Source: Rhodanobacteraceae bacterium
Lineage (GTDB): Bacteria; Pseudomonadota; Gammaproteobacteria; Xanthomonadales; SZUA-5
Reading direction: 5' to 3'
NCBI GenBank assembly: GCA_016717705.1
Contig: JADKFD010000036.1
Span: 129 to 64,128 of the forward strand
DNA: 64,000 bases
Below are positions 9,271 through 61,715 of this stretch, piece by piece; the stretch's first letter is position 1, and each line of letters begins with the position of its first letter. The notes beneath the pieces were generated by a model that searched no databases, had not been told where the DNA came from, and saw only the letters and a list, made by a program, of their open reading frames with translations. Made by a program: the position numbers and the translations under genes.

Positions 9271-9301
9271 AAGCACGCTTTGGCGCCCAAAGCGCTCACG
9301 T
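9271..9301 (-). promoter_or_regulatory. conserved 31-nt box, copy 2 (AAGCACGCTTTGGCGCCCAAAGCGCTCACGT on + strand)
   Basis: 27/31 identical to 3542-3572. It is internally palindromic (CGCTTTGGG.GCCAAAGCG) and lies upstream of ATG 9159. Confidence 0.3.
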
Positions 9302-14877: not shown

Positions 14878-14921
14878 CAGTTCGGCCGCGGGTTGCAGGC
14901 CGAGTTCAGTCAGCGACGCTT

Positions 14922-15705: not shown

Positions 15706-15951
15706 ATGATCTGGACCATACTCGTAGGCCTGCTGGCCGGTTTGCTGGCACGCATGCTCAAGCCGGGCAACGATGACATGGGCATCATCATGACGACCGT
15801 GCTCGGCGTCTGCGGCGCCTTCGCCATGACTGCGGTGGGCCGATCGCTGGGCTGGTACGGCCCCGGCGACGCGGCCGGATTCGTCGGCGCTTTTGTCGGC
15901 GCTTTCGTGATCCTGTTGATCATCGGCGTCGTTCGTCGGCGCACCAGCTGA
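15706..15951 (+). CDS. GlsB/YeaQ/YmgE-family stress membrane protein
   Basis: ATG 15706 with AGGAG upstream. An 81-aa protein with Gly-zipper TM helices: MIWTILVGLLAGLLARML...GVCGAFAMTAVG...FVGAFVGAFVILLIIG. Confidence 0.8.
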   Translation: MIWTILVGLLAGLLARMLKPGNDDMGIIMTTVLGVCGAFAMTAVGRSLGWYGPGDAAGFVGAFVGAFVILLIIGVVRRRTS

Positions 15952-15993
15952 ACAACGCAGCGGCGCGCGATGGCACGCCGCTCGCGCGCGAGC

Positions 15994-16812
15994 TTAATCG
16001 CGATTGCGCGGCCCGATCGGCGTCTCCGGCACCGGGTAACCGGCTGCAGTGAACACCTCGACGATCTTGCGGTTGGTGTCGAAATACACCTGCCAGTAAT
16101 GGTCGGTATGGGTGTACGGCCGCACGCAGAGCTTGGGACCTTCCGGGGTGAATTCGAGCAGATCGATATCCGGCGGCGGGTTGCTGCAAACATTGGCGAT
16201 CGACGCGATCGCCGGCTTCAGCCGCGCGATGGCATCGATCGGCGAAACGCTGTTGGCAATCTTGGCCACGCAGTCGACGCGCCGATACGGCAAGGTGCTG
16301 AAGTTCTGGATATTGTCGGCGAAGATCTTGTTGTTGCCGACCACCACGATGGTGTTGTCCGGCGTGACCACTGTGGTGGCGAACAGACCCAGCTCACGCA
16401 CCGTGCCCAGGGTGCCGCCGGCGCAGATGAAATCACCGACGTTGTAGGGGCGCAGCACCTGCATGAAGATGCCGGCGGCAAAACTGCCGAGCATGCCGCT
16501 CCAGGCCGCGCCGATGGCCAGACCAGCACCCGCGAGCAAGGCCGCAAACGACGTCGTCTTGACCCCGAACATCTCCATCAGCGCCAGGATCAGCACGATG
16601 TTCAGCAACACCGAGACGATCGACTTCAGATAGTTGATCAGCGTGATGTCGAGCTTCTTGGCGCGCTCCATCACCGCGCCCATGGCGCGCGTGGCGATGC
16701 CGATCAGCCAGCGACCGACCACCCAGGCGACGATCGCGCCGACAATCTTCAGGCCGATATCGACGCCCTGGGTGCTGAGATAACCCCACGCGCTCTGCAG
16801 ACTGGCTTCCAT
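15994..16812 (-). CDS. mechanosensitive ion channel (MscS family)
   Basis: Three N-terminal TM segments, then LLAGAGLAIGAAWSGMLGSFAAGIFMQVLRPYNVGDFI...GTVRELGLFATTVVTPDNTIVVVGNNKI, the MscS pore and beta-domain signature. Confidence 0.9.
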   Translation of the reverse strand: MEASLQSAWGYLSTQGVDIGLKIVGAIVAWVVGRWLIGIATRAMGAVMERAKKLDITLINYLKSIVSVLLNIVLILALMEMFGVKTTSFAALLAGAGLAIGAAWSGMLGSFAAGIFMQVLRPYNVGDFICAGGTLGTVRELGLFATTVVTPDNTIVVVGNNKIFADNIQNFSTLPYRRVDCVAKIANSVSPIDAIARLKPAIASIANVCSNPPPDIDLLEFTPEGPKLCVRPYTHTDHYWQVYFDTNRKIVEVFTAAGYPVPETPIGPRNRD

Positions 16813-16942
16813 GGTCGTCCTCGAAGTCGTCGCCTATGAAGGTCGACGTTGTAGCTTCTGAATGCGCACGAAGCAAGAGCGCCGGGCGTCGCGCGTAAGG
16901 GGCGTAGCGCACTGGCGAAGCTTGAGGACGCGCGTGCCCGGC

Positions 16943-17740
16943 CTACTTCGGCGGCGAGAGCGCTGGCGGCATGCTGTTCAACAGATTCACCAACGCCGCG
17001 TCGGCGAAATCGACGCGGACCAGCCCGACGCGCGGGAATTCGACGTCGATGATCACGTACAGCACCATGCTGATGGTCAGCGCGAAGGCTACCGCGTGCC
17101 ACACATGGCGCCGGCGCGCCACGCCCATGTTGTAACCGCCGAGGAATCCGCAGACCATGGCCAGACCGACCAGCAGCATGTAGATGATCATCGGCGGGTG
17201 CGTGCGCGCGGCCAGCCAGCGGGTACTGGTGATGTCGATCATCTCGTTGACCGGGTCGAGCACCGCGTCGACGATCGGCGGACCTTGATGCTGTTGCAAC
17301 GCGGCGATGGTGAGTTTCCAGATCTCGTTCTGCAGCCTGGCAGTGTCATCGACCCCGCCCTGAAGCGTGATGGCCGAGGACTTCAGTCGCACTTCCACGT
17401 ACTGTCGGTAAAGATTGCGCAGTTCCGGCTGGCTGTCCGCCGGCAGCAGGCCGATGCGCAGGTAGGCGGTGCCGATGGCGTTGGCTTCGTCGTTGATCAA
17501 CTCGCGGCGATCGCCAAAACGCGAAGCCGCGCCGGAAAAGACGAACGCCAGCAGCAGCCCCAACAGCGCGAACACCGCTGAATCCATCATGGTCGTACCT
17601 TTCTCGGCGCCCTCCGGGTCGCGCAGGACACGCCGGTTGCCGCGTCGCCAACCGAACTCCATGGCGACCAGTATCAGGACAATCAACCCGGCGAGCAGCG
17701 CCAGCACAAGGGCGATCGCGGGGTATTCGGCTGCAAACAT
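16943..17740 (-). CDS. membrane protein, DUF4239-like
   Basis: ORF 16943..17761(-), start set to ATG 17740. Two N-terminal and two C-terminal TM segments flank a helical region. The family call is from memory only. Confidence 0.55.
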   Translation of the reverse strand: MFAAEYPAIALVLALLAGLIVLILVAMEFGWRRGNRRVLRDPEGAEKGTTMMDSAVFALLGLLLAFVFSGAASRFGDRRELINDEANAIGTAYLRIGLLPADSQPELRNLYRQYVEVRLKSSAITLQGGVDDTARLQNEIWKLTIAALQQHQGPPIVDAVLDPVNEMIDITSTRWLAARTHPPMIIYMLLVGLAMVCGFLGGYNMGVARRRHVWHAVAFALTISMVLYVIIDVEFPRVGLVRVDFADAALVNLLNSMPPALSPPK

Positions 17741-23338: not shown

Positions 23339-23658
23339 GGCGAGACCCGTGCTTGGTGACCTGAAGGCGGTGATCTGAGGGCGGCTACTGGCGTCGCGGG
23401 CAGATGCTAGATCGCGATTGTTGCAGTCGTGAGCGAATCGGATCGGCGATCCAGGGCCCCGAGACCGCGATCGGAATCCGAATCCGCGTGAGCGTCCGCG
23501 CGACTGGACTCCGCTGCAGAAAGCGGCGTTGCCGGCCGTCACCGGCTGCAGCGCTGCCCGGCTTGGCGCAACTTGCCGGCATTCCCACGCAGCCCTCCAT
23601 CCTTGCTGCACATTCAGACCCTAAGCTGCGCCACAAGTCTCCCGATGGAAGCCACACC

Positions 23659-25308
23659 GTGCGCGCATTCCTGAACTTCGCCGCCACCGCTCTGCTGTCG
23701 GCCCTCGCCCTGGCACCGCGCATCGTCGCCGCGCAGGGCGGCCCACCGCCGCTGCCGCCGCTCGGCGCGCCGCCGATTCCGGCGAGCAATCCGCAGACGC
23801 CGGCCAAGATCGCGCTCGGGCAAGCGCTGTATTGGGACGAGCAGCTGTCGATCACCGGCACGGTGGCCTGCGGCACCTGCCATATGCCGCGCGCCGGGGG
23901 CAATGAGCCGCGCACGGCGCAGCCCAACAGCGCCAGCGTCAATCCCGGCAGCGACCAGTTGTTCGGCAGCAACGACGATATCGTCGGCTCGATGGGCGTC
24001 GCCAACCACGACGCCGACGGCCTGTACCAGACCTCTGCCTTGTTCGGGATGGCGCCGCAGGTCGGCACCCGGCAATCGCAGTCGGCGATCAACGCGGCCT
24101 ACCCGACCACCTTGTTCTGGGATGGCCGCGCCGGCAGCGTGTTTGTCGACCCGATCACCCAGACCACGCTGATCGCCAACGGCGGCGCACTCGAAAACCA
24201 GGCGCTCGGACCCGTGGTCAACGGTGTCGAAATGGCGCACACCGCGCGCACGCTGCTCGATGTCGCCACCCGCGTTGCCGGCGTGCGTCCGCTGCGACTG
24301 TCGCCGTACGTGCCGCCAGCGCTGCAGAGCTGGATTGCCAATCGCGATTACCCGACGCTGTTTGCCGAAGTATTCGGCAGCAACGAAGTCACACCGGCGC
24401 GGATTGCGCTGGCGATCGCCAGCTACGAGCGTTCGCTGATCGCCAACCAGACGCCGCATGACCTGCAGAGCCTGACCCAGGCCGAAGTGGCCGGACGCCA
24501 GGCCTTCCAACAGGCTGGCTGCGCACGCTGCCATGGCGGCCCGCTGCTCAGCGACAATGATTTCCACTACATCGGCGTGCGCCCGCAAAACGCCGATCCT
24601 GGCCGCTTTGCGGTGACCGCCAACAATGCCGATCGCGGGCGCATGCGCACGCCGCCGTTGCGCAACGTGGAACTGTCGGCGCCCTACTTCGCCGACGGGC
24701 GTTTCCGCACGCTCGAGGAAGTGGTCGATTTCTACAACCGCGGCGGCGATTTCACGGCGCCGAACAAGGACCCCCGGATCGTGCCGCTGGGCCTCAACGC
24801 GCAACAACGCGCGGCCATCGTCACTTTCCTCAAGCGTCCATTGACCGATCCGCGCGCGCAGAACGAAACGGGACCCTTCGAACGACCGATGTTGTTCAGT
24901 GAGTCACCCTACCTGCCGCAACCAGCCAGTGCCGGCACCCCCGGCCTTGGCGCCACCACGCCTCGATTGTTCGCCGCCGAGCCGCCGCTGGCCGGCAGCA
25001 GCGAATTCACCATTGGCGTCGACCGCGGTCGCGCACTGGCCGCGGCGCGCGCCGTGTTGTCGCTGTCGGACCCGACGTCGGCGGACGCGCCCGCAGTGCT
25101 GACGCAGAACTTCGCGCTGACCAGCAGCGGCAGTGGCTCGATGCACCTTGCTCTGCCCAATGACGCCAATCTCCAGGGCGTGACCCTGTACCTGCGCGTG
25201 TTCGTCGAGGACGCTGCGGCCAGCGGCGGCTGGTCGTCGAGTAACAGCGTCAGCTTCCAGTTGCTGGAGATCAACGATGAGGTGTTCCGCCAGGGCTTCG
25301 AGGACTGA
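23659..25308 (+). CDS. di-haem cytochrome c peroxidase family protein with ~140-aa C-terminal extension ending EVFRQGFED
   Basis: GTG 23659 with a signal peptide. Two CXXCH motifs (CGTCH, CARCH). Family motifs include LGQALYWDEQLS, FWDGRA, MRTPPLRNV and YFADGRF. Confidence 0.85.
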   Translation: MRAFLNFAATALLSALALAPRIVAAQGGPPPLPPLGAPPIPASNPQTPAKIALGQALYWDEQLSITGTVACGTCHMPRAGGNEPRTAQPNSASVNPGSDQLFGSNDDIVGSMGVANHDADGLYQTSALFGMAPQVGTRQSQSAINAAYPTTLFWDGRAGSVFVDPITQTTLIANGGALENQALGPVVNGVEMAHTARTLLDVATRVAGVRPLRLSPYVPPALQSWIANRDYPTLFAEVFGSNEVTPARIALAIASYERSLIANQTPHDLQSLTQAEVAGRQAFQQAGCARCHGGPLLSDNDFHYIGVRPQNADPGRFAVTANNADRGRMRTPPLRNVELSAPYFADGRFRTLEEVVDFYNRGGDFTAPNKDPRIVPLGLNAQQRAAIVTFLKRPLTDPRAQNETGPFERPMLFSESPYLPQPASAGTPGLGATTPRLFAAEPPLAGSSEFTIGVDRGRALAAARAVLSLSDPTSADAPAVLTQNFALTSSGSGSMHLALPNDANLQGVTLYLRVFVEDAAASGGWSSSNSVSFQLLEINDEVFRQGFED

Positions 25309-39455: not shown

Positions 39456-40349
39456 ATGCATGACTCAATCCTCGACTATCGCGGCTTCCGCTATCTGTGG
39501 GTGGCGTTGATCCTGTCCATCGGGTCGATCGTGGCCTACCTCTGGCATGACCCGATCGGCGTGCCCAACGGCGGATCCTGGCTGGGCTACACGCTGGGCA
39601 CCATCGGCGCCCTGCTGATCCTGTGGCTGCTCTGGTTCGGCGTGCGCAAGCGCCGCTACTCCGGCGCCACCGGCAGTGTGCGCGGCTGGTTGTCGGCGCA
39701 CGTGTATCTGGGCACCACACTGATCCTGATCGCCTTCCTGCACGCGGGCTTCCAGGTTGGCTGGAACATCCACACGCTGGCACTGGTGCTGATGCTGCTG
39801 GTGATCTTCAGCGGCTTTTTTGGTGTCTATGCCTACCTGCGCTATCCGGCGATGATGACGCGCAATCGCGCCGACAGCACCCGCGACGCAATGCTTGCCG
39901 AGATCCGCGAACTCGACGGACAGACGTTGCAACTCGCCGACAAGGTCGACAAGAGCATCCACGATGCGATCTTGAGTTCGATCCAGCACAGCCAACTCGG
40001 CGGCGGCGTCTGGGCACAATTGACCCGGCGCGACGATTCGGCAATCGCCCTGGCCAAGCTCAAGGAAGCAGTACTGAAGTCCAACGGCGAGTCCAAGCAA
40101 TCGAAGTCCGGCCAGACCATGGTGATGATGGTGGATTTCCTCGCCAATCAGGCCAACGATACCCAATCGGAAAACCTGCGACGGCTGATCGACCTGGTCT
40201 CGCGCAAGCGCGCACTCGCCACCCGCGTGGCCCGCGACATCCAGTTGCAGGCGCTGATGGAAATCTGGCTGTACATCCACATTCCGCTGTCGCTGGGATT
40301 GCTCGGCGCATTGACCGCGCATGTGCTGTCGGTGTTTTTCTACTGGTAG
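39456..40349 (+). CDS. 5-TM membrane protein with two H-x13-H motifs (candidate di-haem b carrier)
   Basis: Starts 2 nt after the upstream stop. TM3 SAHVYLGTTLILIAFLHAG and the C-terminal TM YIHIPLSLGLLGALTAHVL each carry His-x13-His. A ~140-aa helical soluble insert lies between TM4 and TM5. Confidence 0.75.
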   Translation: MHDSILDYRGFRYLWVALILSIGSIVAYLWHDPIGVPNGGSWLGYTLGTIGALLILWLLWFGVRKRRYSGATGSVRGWLSAHVYLGTTLILIAFLHAGFQVGWNIHTLALVLMLLVIFSGFFGVYAYLRYPAMMTRNRADSTRDAMLAEIRELDGQTLQLADKVDKSIHDAILSSIQHSQLGGGVWAQLTRRDDSAIALAKLKEAVLKSNGESKQSKSGQTMVMMVDFLANQANDTQSENLRRLIDLVSRKRALATRVARDIQLQALMEIWLYIHIPLSLGLLGALTAHVLSVFFYW

Positions 40350-40520: not shown

Positions 40521-42233
40521 ATGAAATGGTTCATTCGCCGCGTCATCAAGAAGGGCAAGGGCAGCCTGCAGTTCGAGGAGGAAATTCATTTTGGCGAAAC
40601 CCTGACCATTGGCCGCGCTGCCAATCAGGCCATCTTCATCAACGATCTGCGCGCGGCGCTGGAACATGCCCGCGTGGTCGCGCTGGGCAACGGCCGTTTT
40701 CGCGTCGAATCGCTGGTGGCTGCAGGCGTCCGCATCGATGGCCGCTTCGAACATTCGGCCACGGCGACTGCAGGCAGCGCCATCGAGGTGGGCAACCTGC
40801 GCATCACGCTGGTCGACCCGCCGGCGGATTTCGAAGCGGCGGTCGAAGTGGGTCTGGTCGACAAGGCCGAAGTTGCCGCGCGCGAAGTATCCGAGGCGCT
40901 GCCGCAATCGCTGGCCGAAACCGGCCTGCGCAAACGCCGCTGGTCATGGGCCCTGCTGCTGTTGACGCTGACATTCGGACTGGCGATTCCGGTGACCGCG
41001 CATTTCGTGCCCACCTTGCGCTCGCTGACCAAGGATGTGCCGGCGATCGGCATGTCGACCTGGGACACCGGGCCACTGGCGTCGGCCCACCACACCATGG
41101 CCAACGACTGCCAGAGTTGTCACGGCACGCCGTTCAGTGTCATTGCGGACGACAAATGCATCGTCTGTCATACCAACACCAAGGCGCACGCCGATCCGGT
41201 GCGTTATGCATTGCCCGAAATTGCGGCCGCTCGCTGCGCCCACTGCCATCGCGACCACAACGGCGACACCGGACTGGTGCGCGCCGACCAGGAACTGTGC
41301 AGCGACTGCCATCGCAATCTGACCGAGCGCGTGAACAACGATACGCAATTGGCCAATGTCGGCGACTTCGGCACCGACCATCCGCAATTCAAGGTGCTGC
41401 TGCCGGCCTGGGACGCGCAGGGCAAGTTCACGCCCGAACGCGTGAGCATGGACCAGAAGCCGCTGACCGAGCGTTCCGGCCTCAAGTTCCCGCATTCCAA
41501 GCACCTGAACCCCGAAGGCCTGAAGACGCCCGACGGTGTGAAGAAGCTCGATTGCGCCAACTGCCACGCGCCCGAACCCGGAGGCGCGCTGCTGGCGCCG
41601 ATCGATTTCGAGCAGCATTGCCAGTCCTGCCATCGCCTCGATTTCGATCTGCGCATTCCCGACCGTCAGGTGGTCCACGGTGACGTGGCGGAGGTGCAAT
41701 TCACGCTTGCCGAGTTCTATTCCAAGGTGGCGCTGGAAGGCGGCTACGATGACGTCAAGGCACCGGTATTCGTGCGCGAACGCCGTCGTCCGGGGCAACC
41801 CGCGATGACCGCGCAGGAACAGCGTGATGCCCTGGTCTGGGCGCGCGACAAAGCCACCGAGATGACCGACTCGCTGATCAACAGCCGCACCTGTACCGTC
41901 TGCCATACGGTTTCCAAGGACCCGGCGGCCACCCAACTGGGCTGGGTGGTTGCGCCGGTACGCGTGGCCGGCGCGTGGTACGAGAAAGCCAGCTTCACGC
42001 ATGCCAAACACGCCACCATGGGCTGCAAGGACTGCCACGCGGCAGATCTCTCGCTGAGCAGCGCCGACCTTTTGATCCCGGATATCGGCGCGGTCGGTTC
42101 CAACAATGCCGTGGCACCTTACGCCTGCCGTGACTGCCACGGCGGCGAGAATGCCAAGCACAAGCTGGGCAGCACCTGCATCGATTGCCACGGATTCCAT
42201 CAGGCGCCGATGCCGTTGCGAGCCGCCAAATAG
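40521..42233 (+). CDS. FHA-like domain / single TM / decahaem c-type cytochrome
   Basis: ATG 40521 (GAAGGGAG upstream). N-terminus ...LTIGRAANQAIFINDLRAALEHARVV...VRIDGR...IEVGNLRITL is FHA-like, with some canonical residues substituted. TM segment WSWALLLLTLTFGLAIPVTA. Ten CXXCH: CQSCH, CIVCH, CAHCH, CSDCH, CANCH, CQSCH, CTVCH, CKDCH, CRDCH, CIDCH. Confidence 0.85.
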   Translation: MKWFIRRVIKKGKGSLQFEEEIHFGETLTIGRAANQAIFINDLRAALEHARVVALGNGRFRVESLVAAGVRIDGRFEHSATATAGSAIEVGNLRITLVDPPADFEAAVEVGLVDKAEVAAREVSEALPQSLAETGLRKRRWSWALLLLTLTFGLAIPVTAHFVPTLRSLTKDVPAIGMSTWDTGPLASAHHTMANDCQSCHGTPFSVIADDKCIVCHTNTKAHADPVRYALPEIAAARCAHCHRDHNGDTGLVRADQELCSDCHRNLTERVNNDTQLANVGDFGTDHPQFKVLLPAWDAQGKFTPERVSMDQKPLTERSGLKFPHSKHLNPEGLKTPDGVKKLDCANCHAPEPGGALLAPIDFEQHCQSCHRLDFDLRIPDRQVVHGDVAEVQFTLAEFYSKVALEGGYDDVKAPVFVRERRRPGQPAMTAQEQRDALVWARDKATEMTDSLINSRTCTVCHTVSKDPAATQLGWVVAPVRVAGAWYEKASFTHAKHATMGCKDCHAADLSLSSADLLIPDIGAVGSNNAVAPYACRDCHGGENAKHKLGSTCIDCHGFHQAPMPLRAAK

Positions 42234-42403
42234 GCGCTTGAATCGGGAGTGCGGCGCCAGTCGCCGCCTCCCGGAAGCCCGCAGGCGCTGATGGGGGGTG
42301 CGGGGCTTCTGGCCGACCCAGATCAGCAGCGGCGCCGCAGTCGCTGCGCCCTGCAAACGCACCCAAGCGCCTGCCAGCCGACCACTCCAAAATGCTCTTA
42401 CTT

Positions 42404-42507
42404 GGGGCGGTGGCCAGCCACCGCCCCCTACACGACAAAGCGCCGGCAAGCCGGCGCTTTGAAGGAGCCTGAACCCCCGGAAGCGGCCAGCGGACCGCCT
42501 CCGGGGG
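42404..42507. terminator. three consecutive GC-rich hairpins between convergent genes
   Basis: GGGGCGGTGG-CCAG-CCACCGCCCC (42404-42427). AAAGCGCCGGC-AA-GCCGGCGCTTT (42437-42460). CCCCCGGA..GCGG...CCGC..TCCGGGGG (42474-42507). Confidence 0.6.
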
Positions 42508-42514
42508 ATCACGC

Positions 42515-43552
42515 TCAATGCACGTTTGAACCAAAGTGCGCGCGGCAACCGCGATCCACCCACAAGCCACGGCGCGGCGTGTATCCCCAGGTCACGCCTT
42601 CGATGCAGGATTGACGCGAATACTGTTCGATCAGCACTGGCGTCCCGAAACGGGCATTCCAGCTGCACAGGGCATAGGCCCCGTCGAGACTTGCGCAGTC
42701 CATGGTGAAGCCGTCGTAATCGTCGGCGTCATAAAAACCGCCGCTCGGGCGATAGGCCTCGGCGAACACGCCGCCGCAACCGCGATCGACCCAGATCACA
42801 CCCGGCTTCTGACCCCAGGTGCGGCCTTCCACACACAGACTGCTGCGCGGAACCTGGCGCAGCAATTCAACCTGGCCGCGGAAGGCCACGTTGCATTCGC
42901 GATAGCCACGCACGCTCTGACAGGTGACTTCCGGAAGCTGACCGACCACCGGTGCCGATTCGATGAAGCGCGCACGGCAACCGCCGTGAACCCAGACCAT
43001 GCCCGGGCGATGGCCCCAGTTGCTGCCTTCAACGCAGCGGGTCGACGACAGTTGGCGCTCGATCACCGGAACATTGCGAAAACCGGTCGCACATTCGCGA
43101 TAGCGACCATCATTGGACTCGCAGGCGACGATCTGTCCACGCCCGGGGGGCTGATTGGTCCAACCCGGCGTGGTCCACCGCACCGGGGGCGGCGGCGGCG
43201 AGGGCGTGCCCGCATAGGTGTTGCCATCGACTCGATCGCGCAGCGATTGCGTCATGTCGTCTGTGATCTGCGCATAGGTCCAGCCACGCGGAATCTGTTC
43301 CAGGTAGAACTCCAGCTGGTCTTCCGGCAACGGACGGCCACCGGACAATTCGGCGAATTGCGCCTCCAGCACGCGCACCTGCTCCGGCTGCGTCAACTTG
43401 CGCAAGTCCTCAGGCGCGTACTTTGCGTTCGGCTCCTGAACCGCGGGCGTCTTGCCACTGGGTGTCTGCGCAAAGGCCAGGGGCATCGATGCAAACGTCA
43501 GTAACAGCAATGCGAGCGTGCTTGCCTTCAAAACGGTCGCTGCAAATCTCAT
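42515..43552 (-). CDS. secreted DUF3011-type Cys-repeat protein
   Basis: Signal peptide present. There are three repeats of the C.S..G.YREC.....V.L..Q.S...C.EG..WG.....(I/V)WV..GCRA.F pattern. Confidence 0.75.
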   Translation of the reverse strand: MRFAATVLKASTLALLLLTFASMPLAFAQTPSGKTPAVQEPNAKYAPEDLRKLTQPEQVRVLEAQFAELSGGRPLPEDQLEFYLEQIPRGWTYAQITDDMTQSLRDRVDGNTYAGTPSPPPPPVRWTTPGWTNQPPGRGQIVACESNDGRYRECATGFRNVPVIERQLSSTRCVEGSNWGHRPGMVWVHGGCRARFIESAPVVGQLPEVTCQSVRGYRECNVAFRGQVELLRQVPRSSLCVEGRTWGQKPGVIWVDRGCGGVFAEAYRPSGGFYDADDYDGFTMDCASLDGAYALCSWNARFGTPVLIEQYSRQSCIEGVTWGYTPRRGLWVDRGCRAHFGSNVH

Positions 43553-43879
43553 GTCACGTCTCCAGGGACTGCGCTCGGCGAACAGCCGCGCGGGAAACTC
43601 ATGTTAGCGCGGGTCCTGAGCCACGGTATGTGCGGCAGCAAACGCAGTTGGTTGCGCGACAGCTTGGGAAATCGGAAGCCCTCCCCCGGCGAATCTGTAG
43701 TGCGTTCCACGGCATTGCCCGCAGGGATCTGGAGATCGCCGCCGCTGAAGGCAAAAGCGTATTGATTGAATTGATATCCTCAGTCCACGCAAACGACGTG
43801 AATCCGAGGTTATGATCTGGACGCCGCGCATGACTCCGGGGGGAGCCATCGGCGCATAGAACTTCTGGGAGGGTGCACG

Positions 43880-45925
43880 ATGGCTTTCAGACGCATGCAC
43901 GGCTTGGCGTTGGGGATTGCAGTTGCCCTGCTCGCCGGGTGCGGAGGTGGCAGTGGCCGCGACACGACCGGCACGGCGCCGCCGCCCAACGCCCCATCCG
44001 AGGGTTGCACCGGCAGTTGCGCTGGAGCGGAATCGCGCCTGACCGTCGCCGACGTGCAGACGGTGATCGCGCAGGCCGTGGCCGAAGCCCAGGCCAACAA
44101 CCTGCCCGCCACCATCGCGGTGGTCGACCGTGTCGGCAATGTGCTCGGTGTCTATCGGATGACCAACGCACAGCCCACGGTTGCGATTCACTCCGAGCGC
44201 GATGTCGCCGGTGGTCTCGAAGACCTGATCGTGCCGTCGGAGCTCGCCGCGATTGCCAAGGCGATGACCGGCGCCTACCTGTCGAGCGAAGGCAACGCTT
44301 TCACCACCCGGACAGCCAGCCAGATCGTCCAGCAGGCCTTCAATCCGGGCGAGAGCAATGCGCCTTCAGGACCGTTGTTCGGCGTGCAGTTCTCGCAACT
44401 GCCCTGTTCCGACTTCATGACCCGGTTCCAGACCGGACAAGCGGCCGGCCCCGGCCCGCGGCGCTCGCCGCTCGGACTGTCGGCGGACCCGGGCGGTTTT
44501 CCGCTGTACAAGAATGGTGTTCCGGTCGGCGGCATCGGCGTTGCCGCTGACCCCGACTACACCCTGGACGCACGCATCTTCGATCGCGACCGCGACGTCG
44601 ACGAGATGATCGCGCTTGCCGGTACCTTCAACTTTGGCGCGCCAGTCAACCGCCGCGCCGACGCGATCACCGCCGATGGCAAGACCTTCCGCTACAGCGA
44701 CGTCGAATTCGCCGATCTGGCGCGCACACCGGGCAATGCGCCGGCGCTCACCGCGACAATGGGCGCATTCATTAAGGTGCCGGCCTATGCCGACGCGATT
44801 CCGCGCGAAGGCACCGCGTTTGGCACGGCCCTGTCGGGTATCCGCGCGGCCGGCAGCGAACTGTCGGACCTCGACGCCTTCATCGTGGTCGATGCCGCCA
44901 ACCAGAATCGCTATCCGGCGCGCGCCGGCACCGATGGCAGCGGCGCGCTGAGCGCCAACGAGGCACAGACCGTGCTGCGCGAAGCGCTCAAGGTCGCCAA
45001 CCGCGCCCGCGCGCAGATTCGCCAGCCGTTTGGAACGCAGGCGCGCGTCAGTGTTTCGGTCGTGGACACCAACGGCGCGGTGCTGGCACTGGCGCGCACC
45101 CGCGATGCGCCGGTGTTCGGCCTCGATGTTTCCCTGCAGAAAGCGCGTTCGGCGATGTTCTTTTCCAATGCCAACGCGGCGGCGGGACTGAACAGCCTGC
45201 CGAATCCAAGCTATTTCGGCGACACGGTGAACCTCGGTGCGACCCCGCCGGAAGTGCGCTTGCGCACCGTCGGCACGGGCACTCTGAGCACGACGGTGGC
45301 GCGCACCCGCGAGTTCCTCGGTTCAGCCACGGCGCTCGCCGACGGCGCCATCGCATTCAGCGACCGTGCGATCGGCAATCTGGCACGGCCGTACTATCCG
45401 GACGGCATCACCGGCCAAGCGGCGGGCCCGTTCAGCAACGAATTCAATTCCTGGAGCCCATTCGACGTCGGGCTGCAACTGGACCTGGCCTACAGCCAGA
45501 TCGCGCTGCACGTAGCCCACTATCTCAATCAGGCTGGACTTGCGCTGTACCTGGATGGGCAACTGCTGGCGCCACCGCCTTCGACCCAGAATCCGGTTCC
45601 GCTGCCCGATATCGGCTTCAACTGCACCGGGTTGCCCAGCCTCGCCAATGGCATCCAGATCTTTCCCGGCGCGGTGCCGATCTACCGCGGCGATCGCCTG
45701 GTCGGTGCGATCGGCGTTTCCGGCGACGGCGTCGATCAGGACGACATGGTGTCCTTCCTCGGTTTGCACAACGCCAGCGTTGCGCTGAACGGTGCCATCG
45801 GCCATGCGCCGACGACGCGTCGAGCCGATCTGCAGGTCCCACGCGGTGCGCGACTGCGTTATGTGCAATGTCCGCAGGCGCCTTTCATCGACTCCACCGA
45901 ACAGAACGTGTGCGAGGGCAAGTGA
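43880..45925 (+). CDS. lipoprotein with two GlcG/DUF336 (haem-degrading-like) domains
   Basis: Canonical lipobox ALLAGC. First domain ...ATIAVVDRVGNVLGVYRM...GGFPLYKNGVPVGGIGVAAD. Second domain ...VSVVDTNGAVLALARTRDAP...IFPGAVPIYRGDRLVGAIGVSGDGVDQDDMV. Confidence 0.75.
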   Translation: MAFRRMHGLALGIAVALLAGCGGGSGRDTTGTAPPPNAPSEGCTGSCAGAESRLTVADVQTVIAQAVAEAQANNLPATIAVVDRVGNVLGVYRMTNAQPTVAIHSERDVAGGLEDLIVPSELAAIAKAMTGAYLSSEGNAFTTRTASQIVQQAFNPGESNAPSGPLFGVQFSQLPCSDFMTRFQTGQAAGPGPRRSPLGLSADPGGFPLYKNGVPVGGIGVAADPDYTLDARIFDRDRDVDEMIALAGTFNFGAPVNRRADAITADGKTFRYSDVEFADLARTPGNAPALTATMGAFIKVPAYADAIPREGTAFGTALSGIRAAGSELSDLDAFIVVDAANQNRYPARAGTDGSGALSANEAQTVLREALKVANRARAQIRQPFGTQARVSVSVVDTNGAVLALARTRDAPVFGLDVSLQKARSAMFFSNANAAAGLNSLPNPSYFGDTVNLGATPPEVRLRTVGTGTLSTTVARTREFLGSATALADGAIAFSDRAIGNLARPYYPDGITGQAAGPFSNEFNSWSPFDVGLQLDLAYSQIALHVAHYLNQAGLALYLDGQLLAPPPSTQNPVPLPDIGFNCTGLPSLANGIQIFPGAVPIYRGDRLVGAIGVSGDGVDQDDMVSFLGLHNASVALNGAIGHAPTTRRADLQVPRGARLRYVQCPQAPFIDSTEQNVCEGK

Positions 45926-45926
45926 C

Positions 45927-47720
45927 ATGAGCCTCTGTCTCTCCGCCGCTTTGGCCGCGCTGATGTGCCCGGCCGCCCTGCCCGCCAATTCGATGTCCAG
46001 CGTGCAGCCGATGATCGGCCATTCGCTGCCGGCCTATCTGTACGATCCGGACCAGTCGAGCGTCGTGCGCCGGCGTCCGGGCCATCCAGCGCCCGGACCG
46101 CGCACCCGACCCGACCAGAATCCGGGCAACGCCGACCCGGCGCCGATCGACGCGGTCGGTGAATTCGTCCCGGTGCCCGATCGCTGGCGCCTGATGGAGG
46201 CGCTCGGCTTCAAGCACCCGTGGTACGACCCGTACAACCAGAATATCTGGAAGGGCGACAAGCCGATCAACGAGGATGAGTGGTTCCTCAGTCTGCTGGC
46301 AGTGTCCGATACGCTGCTCGAACCGCGCTCGCTGCCGACGCCGGTGGGTGCGCAGTCGAGCGCCAATCCAGGCGCCGTGGACATTTTCTCCGGCTTCGAT
46401 CAGACCATTTTGTCGCAGACAGTGCTCGCGGGTCTGGTCTATTACAAGGGCAATACCACCTTCAAGCCGCCCGAATACGAGTACCGCCTGACGCTGGCGT
46501 TGAACTACAACCGCGTCGAAGTCGACGATGTGCGCGCGCTCACCATCGATCCGCGCAAGGGCACGGTGCGCGACGACGGCTTCATCGCGGTGCAGGAAGT
46601 TTTCGCCGACTTCCATTTGCGCGATGTTTCGCCGCGCTATGACTTCGATGCGATCCGCTTCGGCATTCAGCCCTTCTCCAGCGATTTCCGCGGCTTTCTG
46701 TTCCAGGATCTGCAGTTCGGCGTGCGCCTGTTCGGCAACCGCGACAACAACCACCGCCAATACAACCTGGCGTGGTTCCGCCGCGTCGAGAAGGACTTGA
46801 ATTCCGGTCTCAACGACGTCGCCGAGGGATTGCGCGACGACGATGTGTTCATCGCCAACTACTACTGGCAGGACCTGTTCGGACTGCTCGGTTTCACCTC
46901 GCAGGCAGTCGTGGCCTACAACCGCAATCGCGAGGACGAACTGTTCTTCGATTCCAATGGCTTCATCCAGCGACCATCCTCGATCGGCACCGAGCGTACC
47001 CGCGAATACGATGCGGTCTACATCGGCTACAACGGCGATGGCCACATCGGCCGCTTCAATCTATCGACCTCCGCCACCTACGTCTTCGGCGACAACGACA
47101 ACACCTTCACCGGCGAGAACAGCGATATCGCCGCCGGCTTCTTTGCCGCCGAACTGTCGCGCGACTTCGACTGGATTCGCCCGCGCCTGTCGATCGCCTA
47201 CGCCAGCGGCGACGACGATCCTTTCGACGACAAGAGCAACGGTTACGACGCGATCTTCGAAAACCCGATCTTCGCCGGCGCCGACACCAGCTACTGGATC
47301 CGCCAGAACATCCCGCTGATCGGTGGCGGTGGCGTCGCCCTCTCCGGGCGCAACGGGTTGCTGCCGTCGCTGCGCCCGTCCAAGGAACAGGGACAGTCGA
47401 ATTTCGAGAATCCGGGCCTGCACCTGATTGGCATTGGCGCCGATTTCGACATCACGCCGGAATCGCGGGTGTCCTTCAACCTCAACCAGCTGTGGTTCGA
47501 CGACACCGCGGTGCTCGAAGTGGCGCGCAACCAGGCACCGATCGACAAGGAGATCGGCACCGACCTGTCGGTGGCCTGGATCTGGCGCCCGTTCATGAGC
47601 CAGAACGTCGTCGTGCGACTGTCCGGCGCCCTGCTCGAACCCGGCAGCGGCCTCGAAGACCTCTACGGCGAACGCGACCCGTTCTACACCGTGTTGGGCA
47701 ATGTGATTCTGACGTACTGA
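45927..47720 (+). CDS. outer-membrane beta-barrel protein (porin-like)
   Basis: ATG 45927, 1 nt after the upstream stop. Signal MSLCLSAALAALMCPAALPA. Abundant alternating-hydrophobic strands. The C-terminus ...YTVLGNVILTY ends in an aromatic residue. Confidence 0.7.
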   Translation: MSLCLSAALAALMCPAALPANSMSSVQPMIGHSLPAYLYDPDQSSVVRRRPGHPAPGPRTRPDQNPGNADPAPIDAVGEFVPVPDRWRLMEALGFKHPWYDPYNQNIWKGDKPINEDEWFLSLLAVSDTLLEPRSLPTPVGAQSSANPGAVDIFSGFDQTILSQTVLAGLVYYKGNTTFKPPEYEYRLTLALNYNRVEVDDVRALTIDPRKGTVRDDGFIAVQEVFADFHLRDVSPRYDFDAIRFGIQPFSSDFRGFLFQDLQFGVRLFGNRDNNHRQYNLAWFRRVEKDLNSGLNDVAEGLRDDDVFIANYYWQDLFGLLGFTSQAVVAYNRNREDELFFDSNGFIQRPSSIGTERTREYDAVYIGYNGDGHIGRFNLSTSATYVFGDNDNTFTGENSDIAAGFFAAELSRDFDWIRPRLSIAYASGDDDPFDDKSNGYDAIFENPIFAGADTSYWIRQNIPLIGGGGVALSGRNGLLPSLRPSKEQGQSNFENPGLHLIGIGADFDITPESRVSFNLNQLWFDDTAVLEVARNQAPIDKEIGTDLSVAWIWRPFMSQNVVVRLSGALLEPGSGLEDLYGERDPFYTVLGNVILTY

Positions 47721-47727
47721 GGCGCTC

Positions 47728-50700
47728 ATGAAGCTCACGACGATTTCCGCATTGCTGGCGCTGGTGATCGGAGCGACCAGCCTGTCGCAGGTGGCTCTTG
47801 CCTCGGGCGGCGAAACGCCGGTGGACCGCGTCTACACCAAGGCGCCGGATGCCCCGAAGAACCAGACCTGGGCGCAGGCCGACGCCAAGAGCGCCGGCTG
47901 CATGAGCTGCCACAATCCGATCGACCAGAAATCCATGCACGCCTCGGAAGCGGTGGTGCTGGGCTGCGTCGACTGCCACGGCGGCGATCCGACAATCCAC
48001 GGGCCCAAAGACGGGAACGGGCACGTCGCCAGCGCCCCGGGACATGGCAACGAAGGCGAACACGGCCACGCGGCTGCCGCCTATGGCCCCGAGTACACGG
48101 CGGCGATGGAACAAGCACATGTGCTGCCGCGCTATCCGCACACCTGGCACTACCCGAGTTCGGCCAATCCCGAACGCAGCTACACGCTGTTGAATCGGGA
48201 AGCACCCGAGTTCACCCGCTTCGTCAACCCGAGCGATCTGCGCATCGCCCATGAGGCCTGCGGCGCCTGCCACATGCCGATCATCGAGGCGCCAAGCGCT
48301 CGATCATGGCCACCAGCGCCATGCTCTGGGGTGGTGCTTCCTACAACAACGGGATTTTGCCCTACAAGCGCTACATCCTCGGCGAAGGTTACGAGCGCGA
48401 TGGCGAGGCCGCGATCATCAAGGCGCTGCAGCCAGTCACGCCGGACATGGCCGTTAAGGGCGCGCTGGAGCAACTGGTGCCACTGCCGGCCTGGGAAGTG
48501 ATTCCGCCGGGCGACGTCTTCCGCGTGTTCGAGCGCGGTGGCCGCAACATCAATACCACCTTCCCGGAAACCGGATTGCCGAACTCACTGGGCCAGATTC
48601 AGCGCCTTGAGGAACCCGGGCGCCCCGACTTCAAGCAATCCAATCGCGGCCCGGGTACCGGTCAGCGCATCGGCGTGCCGGTGATCAACATCACCAAGAC
48701 CCGCCTCAATGATCCCAACATGTGGTTCATGGGCACCAACGACCAACCGGGCGACTTCCGCCAGTCCGGCTGCAGCGCCTGTCATGTGCCTTACGCCAAT
48801 GATCGCGATCCGCGCCACTCCGGGCCCTACGCGCAGCACGGCCACATGGGCCTGAGCCAGCAGTCCGACCCGACCATCCCGAAGGACCAGCCCGGACACC
48901 CGCTGAAGCACGCCTTCACGCGTTCGATCCCGACCAGCCAGTGCATGAACTGCCACATGCACCAGCCGAACATGTTCATCAACACCTTCCTCGGCTACAC
49001 CATGTGGGACTACGAGTCCGACGCGCCCTTCATGTGGCCGGAGAAGCAGCAGTACCCGAGCCACGACGAGATGCGCAAGGCGCTCGACCGCAACCCGGAG
49101 GAAGCGGTGATCCGTGGCAAGTGGGCCGACCTGGAATTCGTCAAGGAAGTCTCGGCGCTGAATCCGCAGCTGAAGGACACCCAGTTCGCCGACTACCACG
49201 GCCATGGCTGGAACTTCCGCGCCATCTTCAAGCGTGACCGCAAGGGCAACCTGCTCGACGCCGAAGGCGCCAAGGTTTCCGACGACGACCCGAAGAAGTT
49301 CGAGAAAGCCGTGCACATGTCGAGCATCCACGTCGACCTCGGCTTCCATTGCGTCGACTGCCACTTCGCCCAGGACATGCACGGCAACGGCCATATCGTC
49401 GGCGAAGTCGCCCAGGGCGTCGAGATCCAGTGCAAGGACTGCCATGGCACGCCGGACGCCTATCCGAACCTGATCACCTCAGGTCCGATGGCCAGCAAGC
49501 AAGGCCGCAACCTCGGCGACCTGCGCAATCCGGACGGCAAGAAGCGCTTCGAGTGGATCGACGGCAAACTGATCCAGCGCTCGATCATGGAAAGCGGGCT
49601 GCAGTGGGAAATGTCGCTGGTCAAGGACGTCTCCGACAAGGCCAGCCCGGCCTACAACGCCAAGGCCGATCGCGCGCACACCATGCGCAAGGATCCGCTC
49701 AACCAGAGCTACGGATCAGACGTGCCGCCAGCGAGTACGCGCATGGCGAGGACAAGATGCTGTGCTTCAGCTGCCACACCAGCTGGACCACCAGCTGCGG
49801 CGGCTGCCATCTGCCGATCCAGGCCAACTGGAAGACCGAGCGCCATCATTTCGAAGGCGGCGAGACGCGCAACTACGCGACCTACAACCCGCAGGTCGCG
49901 CGCGACGACGTGTTCATGCTGGCCAAGCATGGCGAGGCCAAGGGCTACAAGTACGCGCCGATGCGTTCGTCCAGCGCCCTGATCCTGTCGTCGACCAACT
50001 CCAACCGCGAGCGCATCTACATCCAGCAGCCGCCGATCGCGGCTTCCGGCTACAGCTCGCAGGCTCTGGCACCGCACTATCCGCACACCGAGCGCCGCAC
50101 CGAAACCAAGACCTGTACCGATTGTCATCTGTCCCAGGAAGGCGACAACAACGCCATCATGGCCCAGTTGCTCGGCCAGGGCACCAAGTTCATGGACTTC
50201 CTCGGCTTCAATGCCTGGGTCGGCGGCGAAGGCGAGATCAGCGCCGTGCGCGTCACCGAATGGGAAGAGCCGCAGGCGGTGGTCGGCAGCTATCTGCATC
50301 GCTATGCCTACCCCGACTGGTACAAGAAGCACGAGGACAACGGGCGCCAGCTGACCGAGGCCTACAAGCATTCCGCGGGCGTGGCCAACTGCATCCAGCT
50401 GCGCGGCGAGTACGTCTACGTGGCCGAAGGCAGCAAGGGCTTCCGGGTCTACGACGCGGCCAGCATCGCCAACAAGGGCATCAGCGAACGCATCATCACC
50501 GCACCCTTCTCGCCGCTGGGCCACGACACCCACATCGACACCAAGAACGCCACTTGTGTCGTGCTGCCGACCACGCAGCCGGTGCAGCCCTCGCGCAACG
50601 AGGGCGATCTGATGCGCAAGGTGAACCTGGAACAGCCGGCGCATCCGATCTACCGCTATGCGTTCATCAGTGATGCCGAGGAAGGCCTGATCGTGGTCGA

Positions 50701-51610
50701 CATCGACACGCTGCACGATGGCGAACCGCGCGACAATTTCCTCGAGCGCGCACTGACCTGGAACGAGAACGGCGTACTGACCGGCGCCCGCCATCTGACC
50801 ATCGCCGGCTACTGGTTCTACTTTGCGACGCCCAAGGGCATCGTCGTGGTCAACATGAATGACCCGCTGAAGCCGCAATACGTGCGCACCGTGGATCTGC
50901 CGGATGTGCGCGGCAGCCAGCAGCAGTTCCGCTACCTGTTCGTGACCACCGGCCGCGGACTGGAGGTGGTCGACATCACCCATCCGGACAAGGCCTATGT
51001 CGTGGCCGATGCCTACGTGCCGATCAAGGACGCACACAAGGTGCACGTCGCGCGCACATACGCCTACGTCGCCGCCGGAGCCGAGGGGCTGGTGATCGTC
51101 GACATCACCAAGCCGGTGAAGCCCGTGCTGTACCAGCGTTTCGACGGCGGCGGCGCCATCTCCGATTCGCGCGACGTCACGGTGGCCTCGACCAATGCCT
51201 CGCTGTATGCCTACATCGCCGACGGTCGCAACGGATTGCACGTGGTGCAACTGACCGGCCCGGACATCCAGCCGAAGTTCTACGGCTACAGCCCGGAACC
51301 GATGCCCAAGCTGATCGCCAGCTACGCCACCGGCAAGGCGGCACTGTCGCTGTCGGACGCCCTGGAACGCGACCGCGCGGTCGATGAAACCGGCGGCCAG
51401 ATCTCGGTACTTGGCCGCATCGGCGCACGTCCGTTGAACGAGGCCGAGCAGCGCGCTTTCTTCCTCGATACCAACGGCAACCCGTGGTTCGTCAGCGACA
51501 AGGTCGATGGTCCGCGTGGAATCACTTCGCCGGTGCTGCCGCGCAAGAACAACCGCACCTACGATCAGCAGCGGGCCGAGGCGGCAAAACCGGCTGGCTC
51601 GCCGCACTGA
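47728..51610 (+). CDS. secreted decahaem c-type cytochrome fused to LVIVD-repeat beta-propeller; two frameshifts as sequenced
   Basis: Three ORFs (47728..48501, 48306..49982, 49349..51610) join at about 48286-48293 (...CHMPIIEA/KRSIMATSAMLWGG) and about 49722-49732 (...NQSYGSDVP/ASEYAHGEDKMLCFSCH). Signal peptide present. Ten CXXCH: CMSCH, CVDCH, CGACH, CSACH, CMNCH, CVDCH, CKDCH, CFSCH, CGGCH, CTDCH. The C-terminal half has GLIVVDI, GIVVVNM, GLEVVDI, GLVIVDI and GLHVVQL. Confidence 0.8.
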
Positions 51611-51618
51611 GGGCAGTT

Positions 51619-51649
51619 ACGGTCAGGGCGCGCAAGGCGCCCTGACCGT
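51619..51649 (+). terminator. GC-rich hairpin after the cytochrome gene
   Basis: ACGGTCAGGGCGC..GCGCCCTGACCGT lies 9 nt after the stop. It has no clear U-tract. Confidence 0.5.
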
Positions 51650-51744: not shown

Positions 51745-51930
51745 ACCTGAGGGAGCGGGTTTATCCCGCGATGCTTTGCTTCATTGTCGGGAGCGGGTCT
51801 ATCCCGCGATCCCCTGCTTCATTGTGGGAGCGGGTTCATCCCGCGATGCTTTGTCCAAAGCTCGCGGGATAAACCCGCTCCCACAACAGCAAAGCCAGAA
51901 CTCGCGGAATCAGTCCGCTCCCACATCGGA
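51745..51930. repeat. REP cluster (BIME-like): three direct plus two inverted copies of GGGAGCGGGT(T/C)(T/C)ATCCCGCGAT
   Basis: Copies read at about 51751, 51789 and 51826 (direct) and about 51861 and 51901 (inverted). The same unit recurs at 61551-61620. Confidence 0.85.
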
Positions 51931-61477: not shown

Positions 61478-61715
61478 GGTAAGTGGTGAGTGGTAAGTGG
61501 CGGTCGCGTCACCGTCGCTCCCCGCGGGGGGGGCTCACCCGGGAATTGCTTCCTGTGGGAGCGGGTTTATCCCGCGATCTTTGCCTTGCTTCCTGTGGGA
61601 GCGGGTTTATCCCGCGATGCTGCCAACGGCATCGCGCGCAAGCGCGCTCCTACAACTTCGACGAGAATCCACGCAGGATTTGTAGGAGCGCGCTCGCGCG
61701 CGATGCCTTTGCCCC
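61478..61715. repeat. orphan GTGAGTGG-type arm (61478-61500) followed by a REP cluster
   Basis: GGTAAGTGGTGAGTGGTAAGTGG resembles the arms of the 59788 element. It is followed by two direct GTGGGAGCGGGTTTATCCCGCGAT units and an inverted pair of GTAGGAGCGCGCT(T/C)GCGCGCGAT units. Confidence 0.8.

Follow-up and report, generated by a model that had tools for sequence, protein, structure and literature searches.

A conserved cluster joining a decahaem-propeller cytochrome gene to that of a predicted 18-strand outer-membrane barrel in a Rhodanobacteraceae contig, a candidate electron-transfer module of the cell envelope

The stretch of 64,000 nucleotides analysed here (hereafter, the window; G+C ~64%) derives from contig JADKFD010000036.1 of a Rhodanobacteraceae bacterium and carries a cluster of three genes, designated D, E and F, that encode a lipoprotein, a predicted outer-membrane beta-barrel and a large fusion of a decahaem c-type cytochrome to an LVIVD propeller. 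All three lie on the + strand and are tightly packed, with gaps of 1 nt between D and E and of 7 nt between E and F; the open reading frames and their spacing bear out the arrangement given in a preliminary description made from the sequence alone. The three-gene extent proposed there does not hold, as the functional unit reaches upstream to 37054 and includes three further genes, A, B and C, that had been overlooked. At the other end, the boundary set at 51649 takes in a stable hairpin that follows the F stop codon (51610). This hairpin is not a canonical intrinsic terminator, as there is no U tract and the terminator scan did not call it; the promoter and terminator scan of the sequence returned nothing above chance. 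The coordinates of all features are collected in Table 1.

The N-terminus of D reads MAFRRMHGLALGIAVALLAG-C21 and constitutes a lipobox (LLAG-C21). The protein matches the HbpS-like Pfam family PF03928 with 95.5 bits (cut-off 25), through three stretches that form two domains, at residues ~55–230 and ~360–640. The earlier assignment of D as a lipobox protein with two GlcG/DUF336 domains is upheld by both features. Each domain carries a motif of the type G-G-x-P-[LI]-x(n)-G-[AG]-[IV]-G-V-[SA]-G, and the sequence matches in the PDB are EfgA, 2a2l and HbpS. Four cysteines are conserved in D. There is no haem motif, and among 64 homologues no histidine is conserved at 90% or above, so that a haem-ligand histidine of the HbpS type was not found; for want of an invariant histidine, D is probably not a haem carrier.

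The start codon of E (ATG at 45927) lies 1 nt past the stop codon of D, and the length of the product, 597 residues, agrees with the 596–599 residues of its homologues, of which ~7900 were found. The protein has a signal-peptide-like N-terminus and ends in LTY; most of 82 E-family sequences terminate in Y or F, as do the eight commonest endings. E was modelled with AlphaFold2 from 52 homologues (predicted local distance difference test (pLDDT) 66.5, predicted template modelling score 0.63, with strands mostly at pLDDT 72–88). The model comprises 18 long strands, spanning residues 119–595, which follow an N-terminal segment of ~115 residues that is modelled with low confidence. A Foldseek search against the PDB returned AlgE as the best match (7e-14, TM-score 0.56 normalised to the target), followed by OccD/OccK, MOMP, OmpF/C and LamB. 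The strand prediction proposed in the preliminary description accordingly yields 18 strands, and the view of E as an outer-membrane barrel of ~600 residues with a signal peptide and an aromatic C-terminus is corroborated by the model and its AlgE/Occ-like fold. E falls into no Pfam family and contains no CXXCH motif; a PDB sequence search with it was empty, and the sole match in NCBIfam, DESULF_POR1, is weak (1e-3, 17.9 bits, cut-off 250). The mean column identity of E is 71%, which is unusually high for a porin. Many invariant residues lie in the N-terminal extension, the region of low model confidence, and a further conserved element is an acidic loop of ~70 residues (427–497, SGDDDPFDD...) between strands 13 and 14. 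Conservation of this degree, unusual for a porin, suggests that E contacts partner proteins and has a defined pore lining.

The gene for F is read in three frames within the window. With one base inserted at each of the two frameshift sites, the repaired protein has 1294 residues and no internal stop. It contains exactly ten CXXCH motifs, distributed 3 + 4 + 3 over the frame pieces and confined to approximately the first 800 residues, and its C-terminal part matches the Pfam LVIVD family (PF08309) with 67.6 bits (cut-off 20.2). The signal peptide of F is of the Sec type, and a lipobox-like string occurs in only one of 120 homologues; in 118 of the same 120, all ten CXXCH motifs are retained. 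The haem region has ~80 residues per haem, and the protein 129 overall. A structure for F was taken from the AlphaFold2 model of a homologue (P0098, residues 39–1238), in which a propeller of approximately seven blades is predicted with confidence (pLDDT 80–97); two cysteines of the propeller are invariant in the family. The motif count, the PF08309 match and the modelled propeller together confirm that F is composed of an N-terminal part with ten CXXCH motifs and a C-terminal LVIVD propeller, as had been noted at the outset.

Only generic propellers were recovered when the F model was searched by fold; its haem domain was not modelled well enough to match. The hits include AztD and cd1 nitrite reductase, which are periplasmic, and BtuG and a YVTN S-layer protein, which are located at the surface. 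In a PDB sequence search with the full-length sequence P0001, the one marginal match covered 44 residues of haem motif (6lod, E = 0.06). ExtM, a cytochrome of a selenite/tellurite operon, was considered as a family for F and rejected, since the NCBIfam match spans just 50 residues of a di-haem motif.

The repaired protein has more than 8000 full-length homologues, with lengths of 1240–1400 residues. No other protein of the cluster is as well conserved as F: identity across classes is 60–78% for its middle and C-terminal parts, against 49–72% for E, 43–65% for D and 26–59% for C, and the most conserved segment of all is the second frame piece, which holds haems 4–7. Conservation of this kind would suit an enzyme better than a wire. 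When the haem region was searched exhaustively, 2730 representatives were returned at E ≤ 1e-3. Full-length relatives with 36–53% identity, among them genomes labelled Planctomycetota and Candidatus Xenobia, keep the propeller and 8–10 CXXCH motifs (28 in one case), and the fusion of haem domain and propeller is retained in relatives down to 36–45% identity.

Of the three genes upstream, A encodes a protein in which Pfam identifies a pyridine-nucleotide-disulfide-oxidoreductase fold, two cyclic-nucleotide-binding domains and a 4Fe-4S ferredoxin domain, the last matching PF13247 (Fer4_11) at 1.6e-9; searched against NCBIfam, A gives partial matches only. The gene ends 3 nt before B. In the product of B, W78, H82 and H96, S119, G120 and G123, and W271, H275 and H289 are invariant or nearly so in 30 homologues, forming the motifs W78-X3-H82-X13-H96, S119-G120-X-X-G123 and W271-X3-H275-X13-H289. 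The cytochrome b561 family (PF01292) is weakly matched by all 30 members (best 2.9e-7), most of them below the cut-off; B of the window scores 12.8 bits against a gathering score of 30.1. Marginal matches to Ferric_reduct (E ~0.17) occur in five of the 30. Candidate relatives of B in the PDB, obtained with a profile, were coiled-coil noise only and were discarded.

The product of C contains ten CXXCH motifs in the window and in 52 of 56 homologues, and its N-terminal FHA domain, on the cytoplasmic side, is matched by Pfam in 25 of 31 family members (best 4e-13). With ten haems in ~400 periplasmic residues, the decahaem domain of C appears wire-like. Its match to TIGR03508, the MtrA/DmsE type, has an E-value of 0.002 and 17.6 bits (cut-off 192). 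In many lineages a tetrahaem cytochrome, here termed G, is encoded directly 3' of F. In Halieaceae, Spongiibacteraceae, Salinisphaerales and others, the cluster is extended by G (Pfam Cytochrome_C554), a PP2C phosphatase and a double-FHA protein (for example at 13699–17069 of locus L002 and 13726–17215 of locus L088). The PP2C and double-FHA genes of those lineages, together with nearby Ser/Thr kinase genes, suggest that the module is under phospho-threonine control.

Gene order was established from the neighbourhoods of homologues and a tblastn survey of 86 loci. The order B-C-D-E-F is found in essentially all of the ~80 loci with enough flanking sequence, in Gamma-, Beta- and Alphaproteobacteria, and A adjoins B, or follows G at the 3' end, in 53 related loci. 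The comparative genomics that had been suggested as a check on D, E and F thus returns an invariant order of these genes in ~80 loci of three proteobacterial classes and, judged by this co-occurrence, the three are functionally linked. The window departs from the common arrangement by the presence of a DUF3011 gene on the opposite strand between C and D. This gene is found at the C-D gap only in the close relatives L003, L004, L090 and L094 and is absent there from all other loci; it divides the otherwise contiguous cluster into two transcription units.

A scan with one genome per species gave at least 600 pattern matches, with at least 592 species genomes encoding a relative of F; a few of the bins carry improbable taxon labels. 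The best 80 of these at least 592 genomes belong to Lysobacterales, Halieaceae, Spongiibacteraceae, Alcanivoracaceae, Nevskiales, Salinisphaerales (Spectribacter), Steroidobacterales and Granulosicoccus, as well as Limnobacter and other Burkholderiales, Casimicrobiaceae, Zavarzinia and Rhodospirillaceae. Aerobes predominate among the hosts. Several have been cultured (Limnobacter alexandrii, a Zavarzinia species, Tahibacter amnicola, Pseudohalioglobus lutimaris and Spectribacter species), which makes hypotheses on the cluster directly testable. On the evidence of domain content and gene order, we see an even chance that D, E and F form the outer-membrane-proximal half of a conserved six-to-seven-gene module for electron transfer across the cell envelope.

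Table 1. Positions of the genes, frame pieces and other features of the cluster in the window
Feature	Position	Strand	Basis
A, cytoplasmic flavoprotein, 799 aa	37054..39453	+	Pfam Pyr_redox_2/3, cNMP_binding (two copies), Fer4_7/9/11
B, inner-membrane protein, 297 aa, putative di-haem b cytochrome	39456..40349	+	5 predicted transmembrane helices, His motifs
C, 570 aa, FHA, one transmembrane helix and decahaem c domain	40521..42233	+	CXXCH count, Pfam FHA, cytochrome c7/c3 matches
DUF3011 gene, 345 aa, between C and D, outside the module	42515..43552	-	Pfam DUF3011, 3.7e-46
D, lipoprotein of outer-membrane type, 681 aa, two GlcG/HbpS-like (DUF336) domains	43880..45925	+	lipobox, PF03928
E, outer-membrane beta-barrel, 597 aa, 18 predicted strands	45927..47720	+	AlphaFold2, Foldseek, aromatic C-terminus
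F, decahaem-LVIVD fusion, read in three frames	47728..51610	+	CXXCH count, PF08309
F piece 1, signal peptide and haems 1-3 (CMSCH, CVDCH, CGACH)	47728..48289	+	frame 1
F piece 2, haems 4-7 (CSACH, CMNCH, CVDCH, CKDCH)	48290..49729	+	frame 0
F piece 3, haems 8-10 (CFSCH, CGGCH, CTDCH) and LVIVD propeller, ~seven blades	49730..51610	+	PF08309, AlphaFold2
Frameshift site 1, one base absent	48290	+	alignment to orthologues and same-species contig
Frameshift site 2, one base absent	49730	+	alignment to L003/L004
Stable hairpin 10 nt past the F stop, 12-13 bp, G+C-rich	51620..51648	+	-31.1 kcal/mol, z = -4.11

The frameshifts suspected near 48286–48293 and 49722–49732 proved to be real features of this sequence. 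The phase of the third-position G+C content (GC3) switches at ~48300 and ~49720, and GC3 stays at 0.79–0.86 in all three pieces of F. The closest intact orthologues, L003 and L004, share 86% nucleotide and 95% amino-acid identity with F of the window, and their alignment to it contains exactly two 1-nt gaps, after 48289/48290 and after 49729, with no further indel. At the first site the window reads GAGGC-GCC where the orthologues and contig L094 read GAGGCTGCC, and at the second it reads CCGCC-AGCGA where L003 and L004 read CCGCCGAGCGA. In the restored frame, the ratio of nonsynonymous to synonymous substitution rates (dN/dS) relative to L003 is 0.073, 0.028 and 0.042 for pieces 1, 2 and 3, respectively. 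L094, a metagenome contig from the Joint Genome Institute, is 98.5% identical to the window over 42063–48337 and is intact at site 1; this same-species comparison, from a single scan, spanned site 1 only. All other indels between the window and L094 are intergenic, and C, D and E have no coding indel. Several of them fall at 42284–42431, 3' of C, where a 54-nt block is missing from the window.

Since L094 is intact at site 1, the deletion there is peculiar to the present sequence, and since the two breaks are the sole indels relative to the orthologues and dN/dS is low, both are best explained by sequencing error or very recent mutation. Programmed frameshifting was considered and rejected: the sites differ, neither has a slippery heptamer, both shifts are -1, and the orthologues and the same-species contig are simply in frame. 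No exact match was found to E, to D or to the truncated F product of 257 residues; B was matched exactly only on short contigs, which end before F, and the members of the 90% clusters of F have at most 95% identity to the repaired protein.

It is possible, with the balance tipping the other way, that F is a fresh pseudogene here, in which both 1-nt deletions are real, only the first 187 residues of the truncated protein are correct and the module does not function. The occurrence of two independent breaks in one gene of 3.9 kb, when C, D and E are clean relative to the same-species contig, is consistent with such decay, as is the fact that neither site is a long homopolymer; the intact site 1 of L094 would then mean that the deletion is no trait of the species. 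Against decay, F shows no other defects, the restored frame being free of stops with the low dN/dS and steady GC3 given above. Moreover, a REC-REC-(half GGDEF)-EAL gene elsewhere in the window also appears to be split between frames, and we favour indel errors in the assembly on this account.

This second gene, on the - strand from 13428 to ~15700, is seemingly read in three frames: its first receiver domain breaks off at position 86 of the 111 in the Pfam model and resumes in another frame, and its GGDEF domain lacks the N-terminal half. It probably reflects further 1-nt assembly indels or a second decaying gene. The REC/EAL proteins of L001 and L089 were tried as references for it and are not orthologues. 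Another frameshifted gene could be represented by two open reading frames on the - strand, at 9633–10343 and 10018–12264, which overlap by ~330 nt in different frames, with a GC3 switch at ~10362 and no Pfam match. The cytochrome gene F is best treated as intact pending confirmation at the level of reads, and not annotated as three open reading frames.

The known electron routes through the Gram-negative envelope (Mtr/Mto/Pio, Geobacter Pcc and Cyc2) come from specialised metal reducers and oxidisers. In the MtrCAB structure the MtrB barrel has 26 strands, and surface cytochromes of the MtrC/OmcA type are lipoproteins. The cluster resembles MtrCAB, MtoAB and PioAB in that decahaem cytochromes are encoded beside an outer-membrane barrel and electrons would pass between the inner and outer membranes; some members of the C and F families also match the Pfam model for domain II/IV of MtrC/MtrF. 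In contrast to the 26-strand barrels, E has 18 strands and no MtrB-family match, and a barrel of this strand number appears too narrow to enclose a decahaem domain in the manner of MtrB. F, at 1294 residues, is four times longer than MtrA (~330 residues), has 3–4 times as many residues per haem and carries a propeller; the available text of PMC5566968 gives ~33 residues per haem for MtrA and 26–33 for wire-like cytochromes. There is no lipoprotein cytochrome here, D being a haem-free lipoprotein and F having a Sec signal without a lipobox, and the inner-membrane partner is a di-haem b protein with an FHA-decahaem protein in place of a CymA/NapC-type protein. The cluster thus fails every defining feature of Mtr-type systems that was tested, namely barrel size, an MtrA-like cytochrome and a lipoprotein cytochrome. 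The resemblance to a porin-cytochrome module seen in the preliminary description survives in part: the cytochrome does adjoin an outer-membrane barrel and has inner-membrane redox partners, and it is the Mtr-type sheath that does not fit (18 strands, no lipobox in F, ~80–130 residues per haem).

A bioinformatic proposal by He, Barco, Emerson & Roden (2017, PMC5566968) includes PCC4, a putative and uncharacterised porin-cytochrome cluster. As described in the available text of that paper, the inner-membrane protein of PCC3 and PCC4 has ~300 residues and five transmembrane helices, with SGXXG on the fourth and WX3HX13H on the third and fifth, and is read as a di-haem b electron carrier; B matches this signature exactly. 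In PCC4 subgroup II an Fe-S (pfam13247) gene lies upstream of the inner-membrane-protein gene, and A matches PF13247. Further likenesses in the same text are a predicted porin, several multihaem cytochromes of the periplasm, a decahaem and a tetrahaem one among them, the lack of a lipoprotein surface cytochrome, and occurrence in Proteobacteria and Planctomycetes. The cytochromes described for PCC4 have 4, 5 and 10 haems, whereas those found here have 10 (C), 10 (F) and, in other lineages only, 4 (G), with no pentahaem cytochrome. The propeller fusion, the GlcG/HbpS lipoprotein and the FHA domain are absent from the available text of PMC5566968, in a comparison made by description and not by sequence. 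Two of the three published features of PCC4, the inner-membrane signature and the upstream Fe-S gene, are present here as judged from sequence.

'Group 1' clusters in metagenome-assembled genomes from karst (FEMS Microbiol Ecol 2026, PMC13264449) comprise a decahaem gene of 4–5 kb beside a porin of ~20 strands. In 7 of 11 cases a ferredoxin-NADP reductase-like gene lies close by, and that karst community was dominated by a Limnobacter genome bearing porin-cytochrome genes. Limnobacter genomes carry the present cluster, and the group 1 clusters are probably the same, matched by description and not by sequence; the account given there is a single sentence, without domain analysis, propeller, lipoprotein, FHA, b-haem protein or function. 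LVIVD or DUF336 domains were not found linked to a multihaem cytochrome of the F kind in the papers searched. Two candidate precedents were set aside: in the Tenderiales uet paper the LVIVD protein is separate and haem-free, and the domain in the Idiomarina paper is DUF3365. In a survey of outer-membrane cytochromes (PMC11475568), six taxon and propeller terms that were looked for are all absent. We regard the cluster as widespread, strongly conserved and uncharacterised, and as only fleetingly noticed in the literature.

The pairing of A with B recalls the eukaryotic and bacterial NOX, ferric reductase (FRE) and MsrQ-type systems, in that a flavoprotein of the NAD(P)H type is encoded upstream of a protein with two HX13H pairs for stacked b haems, an arrangement suited to exporting electrons from the cytoplasm; the comparison was also made for the inner-membrane protein by He et al., in the available text of PMC5566968. 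A and B differ from these systems in being separate polypeptides, in the additional Fe-S and cyclic-nucleotide-binding domains of A, and in that B is closer to cytochrome b561/HyaC than to Ferric_reduct, its match to the latter being marginal. Members of the cytochrome b561/HyaC family usually talk to quinones. For E, the best structural matches, AlgE and OccD/OccK, are likewise 18-strand monomeric barrels (7e-14 to 1e-7, TM-score 0.52–0.59, target-normalised). They share just 9–15% sequence identity with E, which has no Pfam Alginate_exp match and adds the conserved N-terminal segment of ~115 residues and the acidic loop of ~70 residues; no polysaccharide genes lie near E. Cyc2, in which one polypeptide combines an N-terminal monohaem domain with a barrel of 16 strands, shows that a small barrel can hold a haem domain. 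E differs from Cyc2 in having no CXXCH motif, the cytochrome F being encoded by a separate gene.

The proposed function arranges these proteins in a chain. With NAD(P)H as donor, electrons would pass by way of A and B; with the quinone pool as donor, by way of B; or both routes would serve. They would move between the cytoplasmic membrane and F via C, and through G where it is present. F would act as a substrate-specific terminal oxidoreductase that lies at the outer membrane on the periplasmic side, where it would dock onto D and onto the conserved N-terminal extension that E exposes to the periplasm. E in turn would be a channel or anchor that gives F access to external or incoming substrate, not a sheath around F, and its acidic loop would fit a cation. 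Activity may be gated by cyclic-nucleotide binding in A and by phospho-threonine signalling, through the FHA domain of C and the PP2C and FHA proteins encoded in other lineages. The 18-strand barrel, the non-lipoprotein nature of F and its enzyme-like conservation argue for a periplasmic F and a non-sheath E; this placement, with F docked to D and the E extension and E as channel or anchor, is the reading we favour, at even odds. Outward (reductive) electron flow is somewhat more likely than inward; the adjacency of A to B favours this NOX-like direction.

Several points weigh against such a chain. No experimental work exists on any member of the family, and A might serve in regulation and not as the donor of electrons. 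The role given to D is a guess, as no invariant histidine marks it as a haem carrier. The haem domain in the P0098 model has pLDDT values of 26–70 over many stretches, so that neither an active site nor the packing of the haems can be read from it. The lineage of the window has no G. The opposite-strand DUF3011 gene, by splitting the cluster, means that D, E and F need a promoter of their own, and the promoter scan detected none. Finally, if both deletions in F are real, the module is dead in this organism.

In place of a periplasmic enzyme, F could belong to a true porin-cytochrome conduit, in which part of the protein, such as a small N-terminal di-haem region, lies inside or passes through E, the propeller sits on the surface and meets minerals, electrodes or other cells, and D caps or stabilises the complex. 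The adjacency of cytochrome and barrel genes, with inner-membrane and periplasmic redox partners, would be expected of such a conduit, and a cluster type that is probably this one was placed among porin-cytochrome complexes in the 2026 survey (PMC13264449). The first LVIVD repeats to be described came from cell-surface proteins (PMC2447325), and the nearest propeller folds include two surface proteins, BtuG and a YVTN S-layer protein; these folds are generic, however, and AztD and cd1 nitrite reductase, both periplasmic, are among them as well. That E is so strongly conserved agrees with a tight complex of proteins. Cyc2 provides a precedent for a small barrel holding a haem domain, but with 18 strands and not 26 the decahaem domain as a whole cannot be sheathed. 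F moreover has no lipobox, the cluster encodes no secretion system, and the 80–130 residues per haem of F compare with 26–33 in known wire-like multihaem cytochromes. Most hosts, too, are aerobes not known for extracellular electron transfer. Overall we consider a conduit unlikely.

That the cluster is a redox sensor, in which the multihaem proteins relay the redox state of the periplasm or the exterior across the inner membrane, to A and to the FHA domain of C, and these control downstream targets by phospho-threonine and cyclic-nucleotide signalling, is very improbable: the FHA domain in 25 of 31 C family members, the two cyclic-nucleotide-binding domains of A and the PP2C phosphatase, double-FHA and Ser/Thr kinase genes that adjoin the cluster in Halieaceae and other lineages are consistent with it, but at least 20 haems, a di-haem b protein and a dedicated barrel would be a heavy investment for sensing, many lineages, that of the window among them, lack the PP2C and FHA genes, and the extreme conservation of F suggests chemistry beyond sensing.

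Returning to the trans-envelope chain with a periplasmic F, the module joins parts that have not been seen together in characterised systems, namely the flavoprotein A, the membrane protein B, the FHA-decahaem protein C, the lipoprotein D, the AlgE-like barrel E and the haem-propeller fusion F. In its most specific form, the cluster would represent a new class of trans-envelope oxidoreductase in aerobic Proteobacteria, with a NOX-like export chain running from NAD(P)H through the FAD and Fe-S centres of A, the two b haems of B and the decahaem wire of C to F as a catalytic enzyme, gated by cyclic nucleotides and phospho-threonine and ending at a dedicated cation-selective channel formed by E. 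We put this forward as a speculation that is rather unlikely to hold in full. Were it true, ordinary aerobic heterotrophs of soil, groundwater and sea water would have a route of their own, unrelated to Mtr, Pcc and Cyc2, for the reduction or oxidation of an external metal or oxidant. Any pathway of electron export or uptake in these hosts would add to the organisms from which electron exchange with metals, humics or oxidants is expected, and would place such a pathway under direct second-messenger control.

Other features of the window were recorded in passing. Just 3' of F, a palindromic unit of ~22 nt, GGGAGCGGGTnnATCCCGCGAT, which resembles repetitive extragenic palindromes, occurs in four copies in both orientations at 51748–51925, and two further such units lie 10 kb on, at 61557–61618; the chance expectation is none. 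The - strand at 6193–9276 encodes a protein of 1027 residues, probably secreted, with several propeller-type domains (lactonase/YNCE/NHL) and fibronectin type III. An open frame of 644 codons on the + strand at 23374–25308 contains two CXXCH motifs and is a possible c-type cytochrome unrelated to the cluster.

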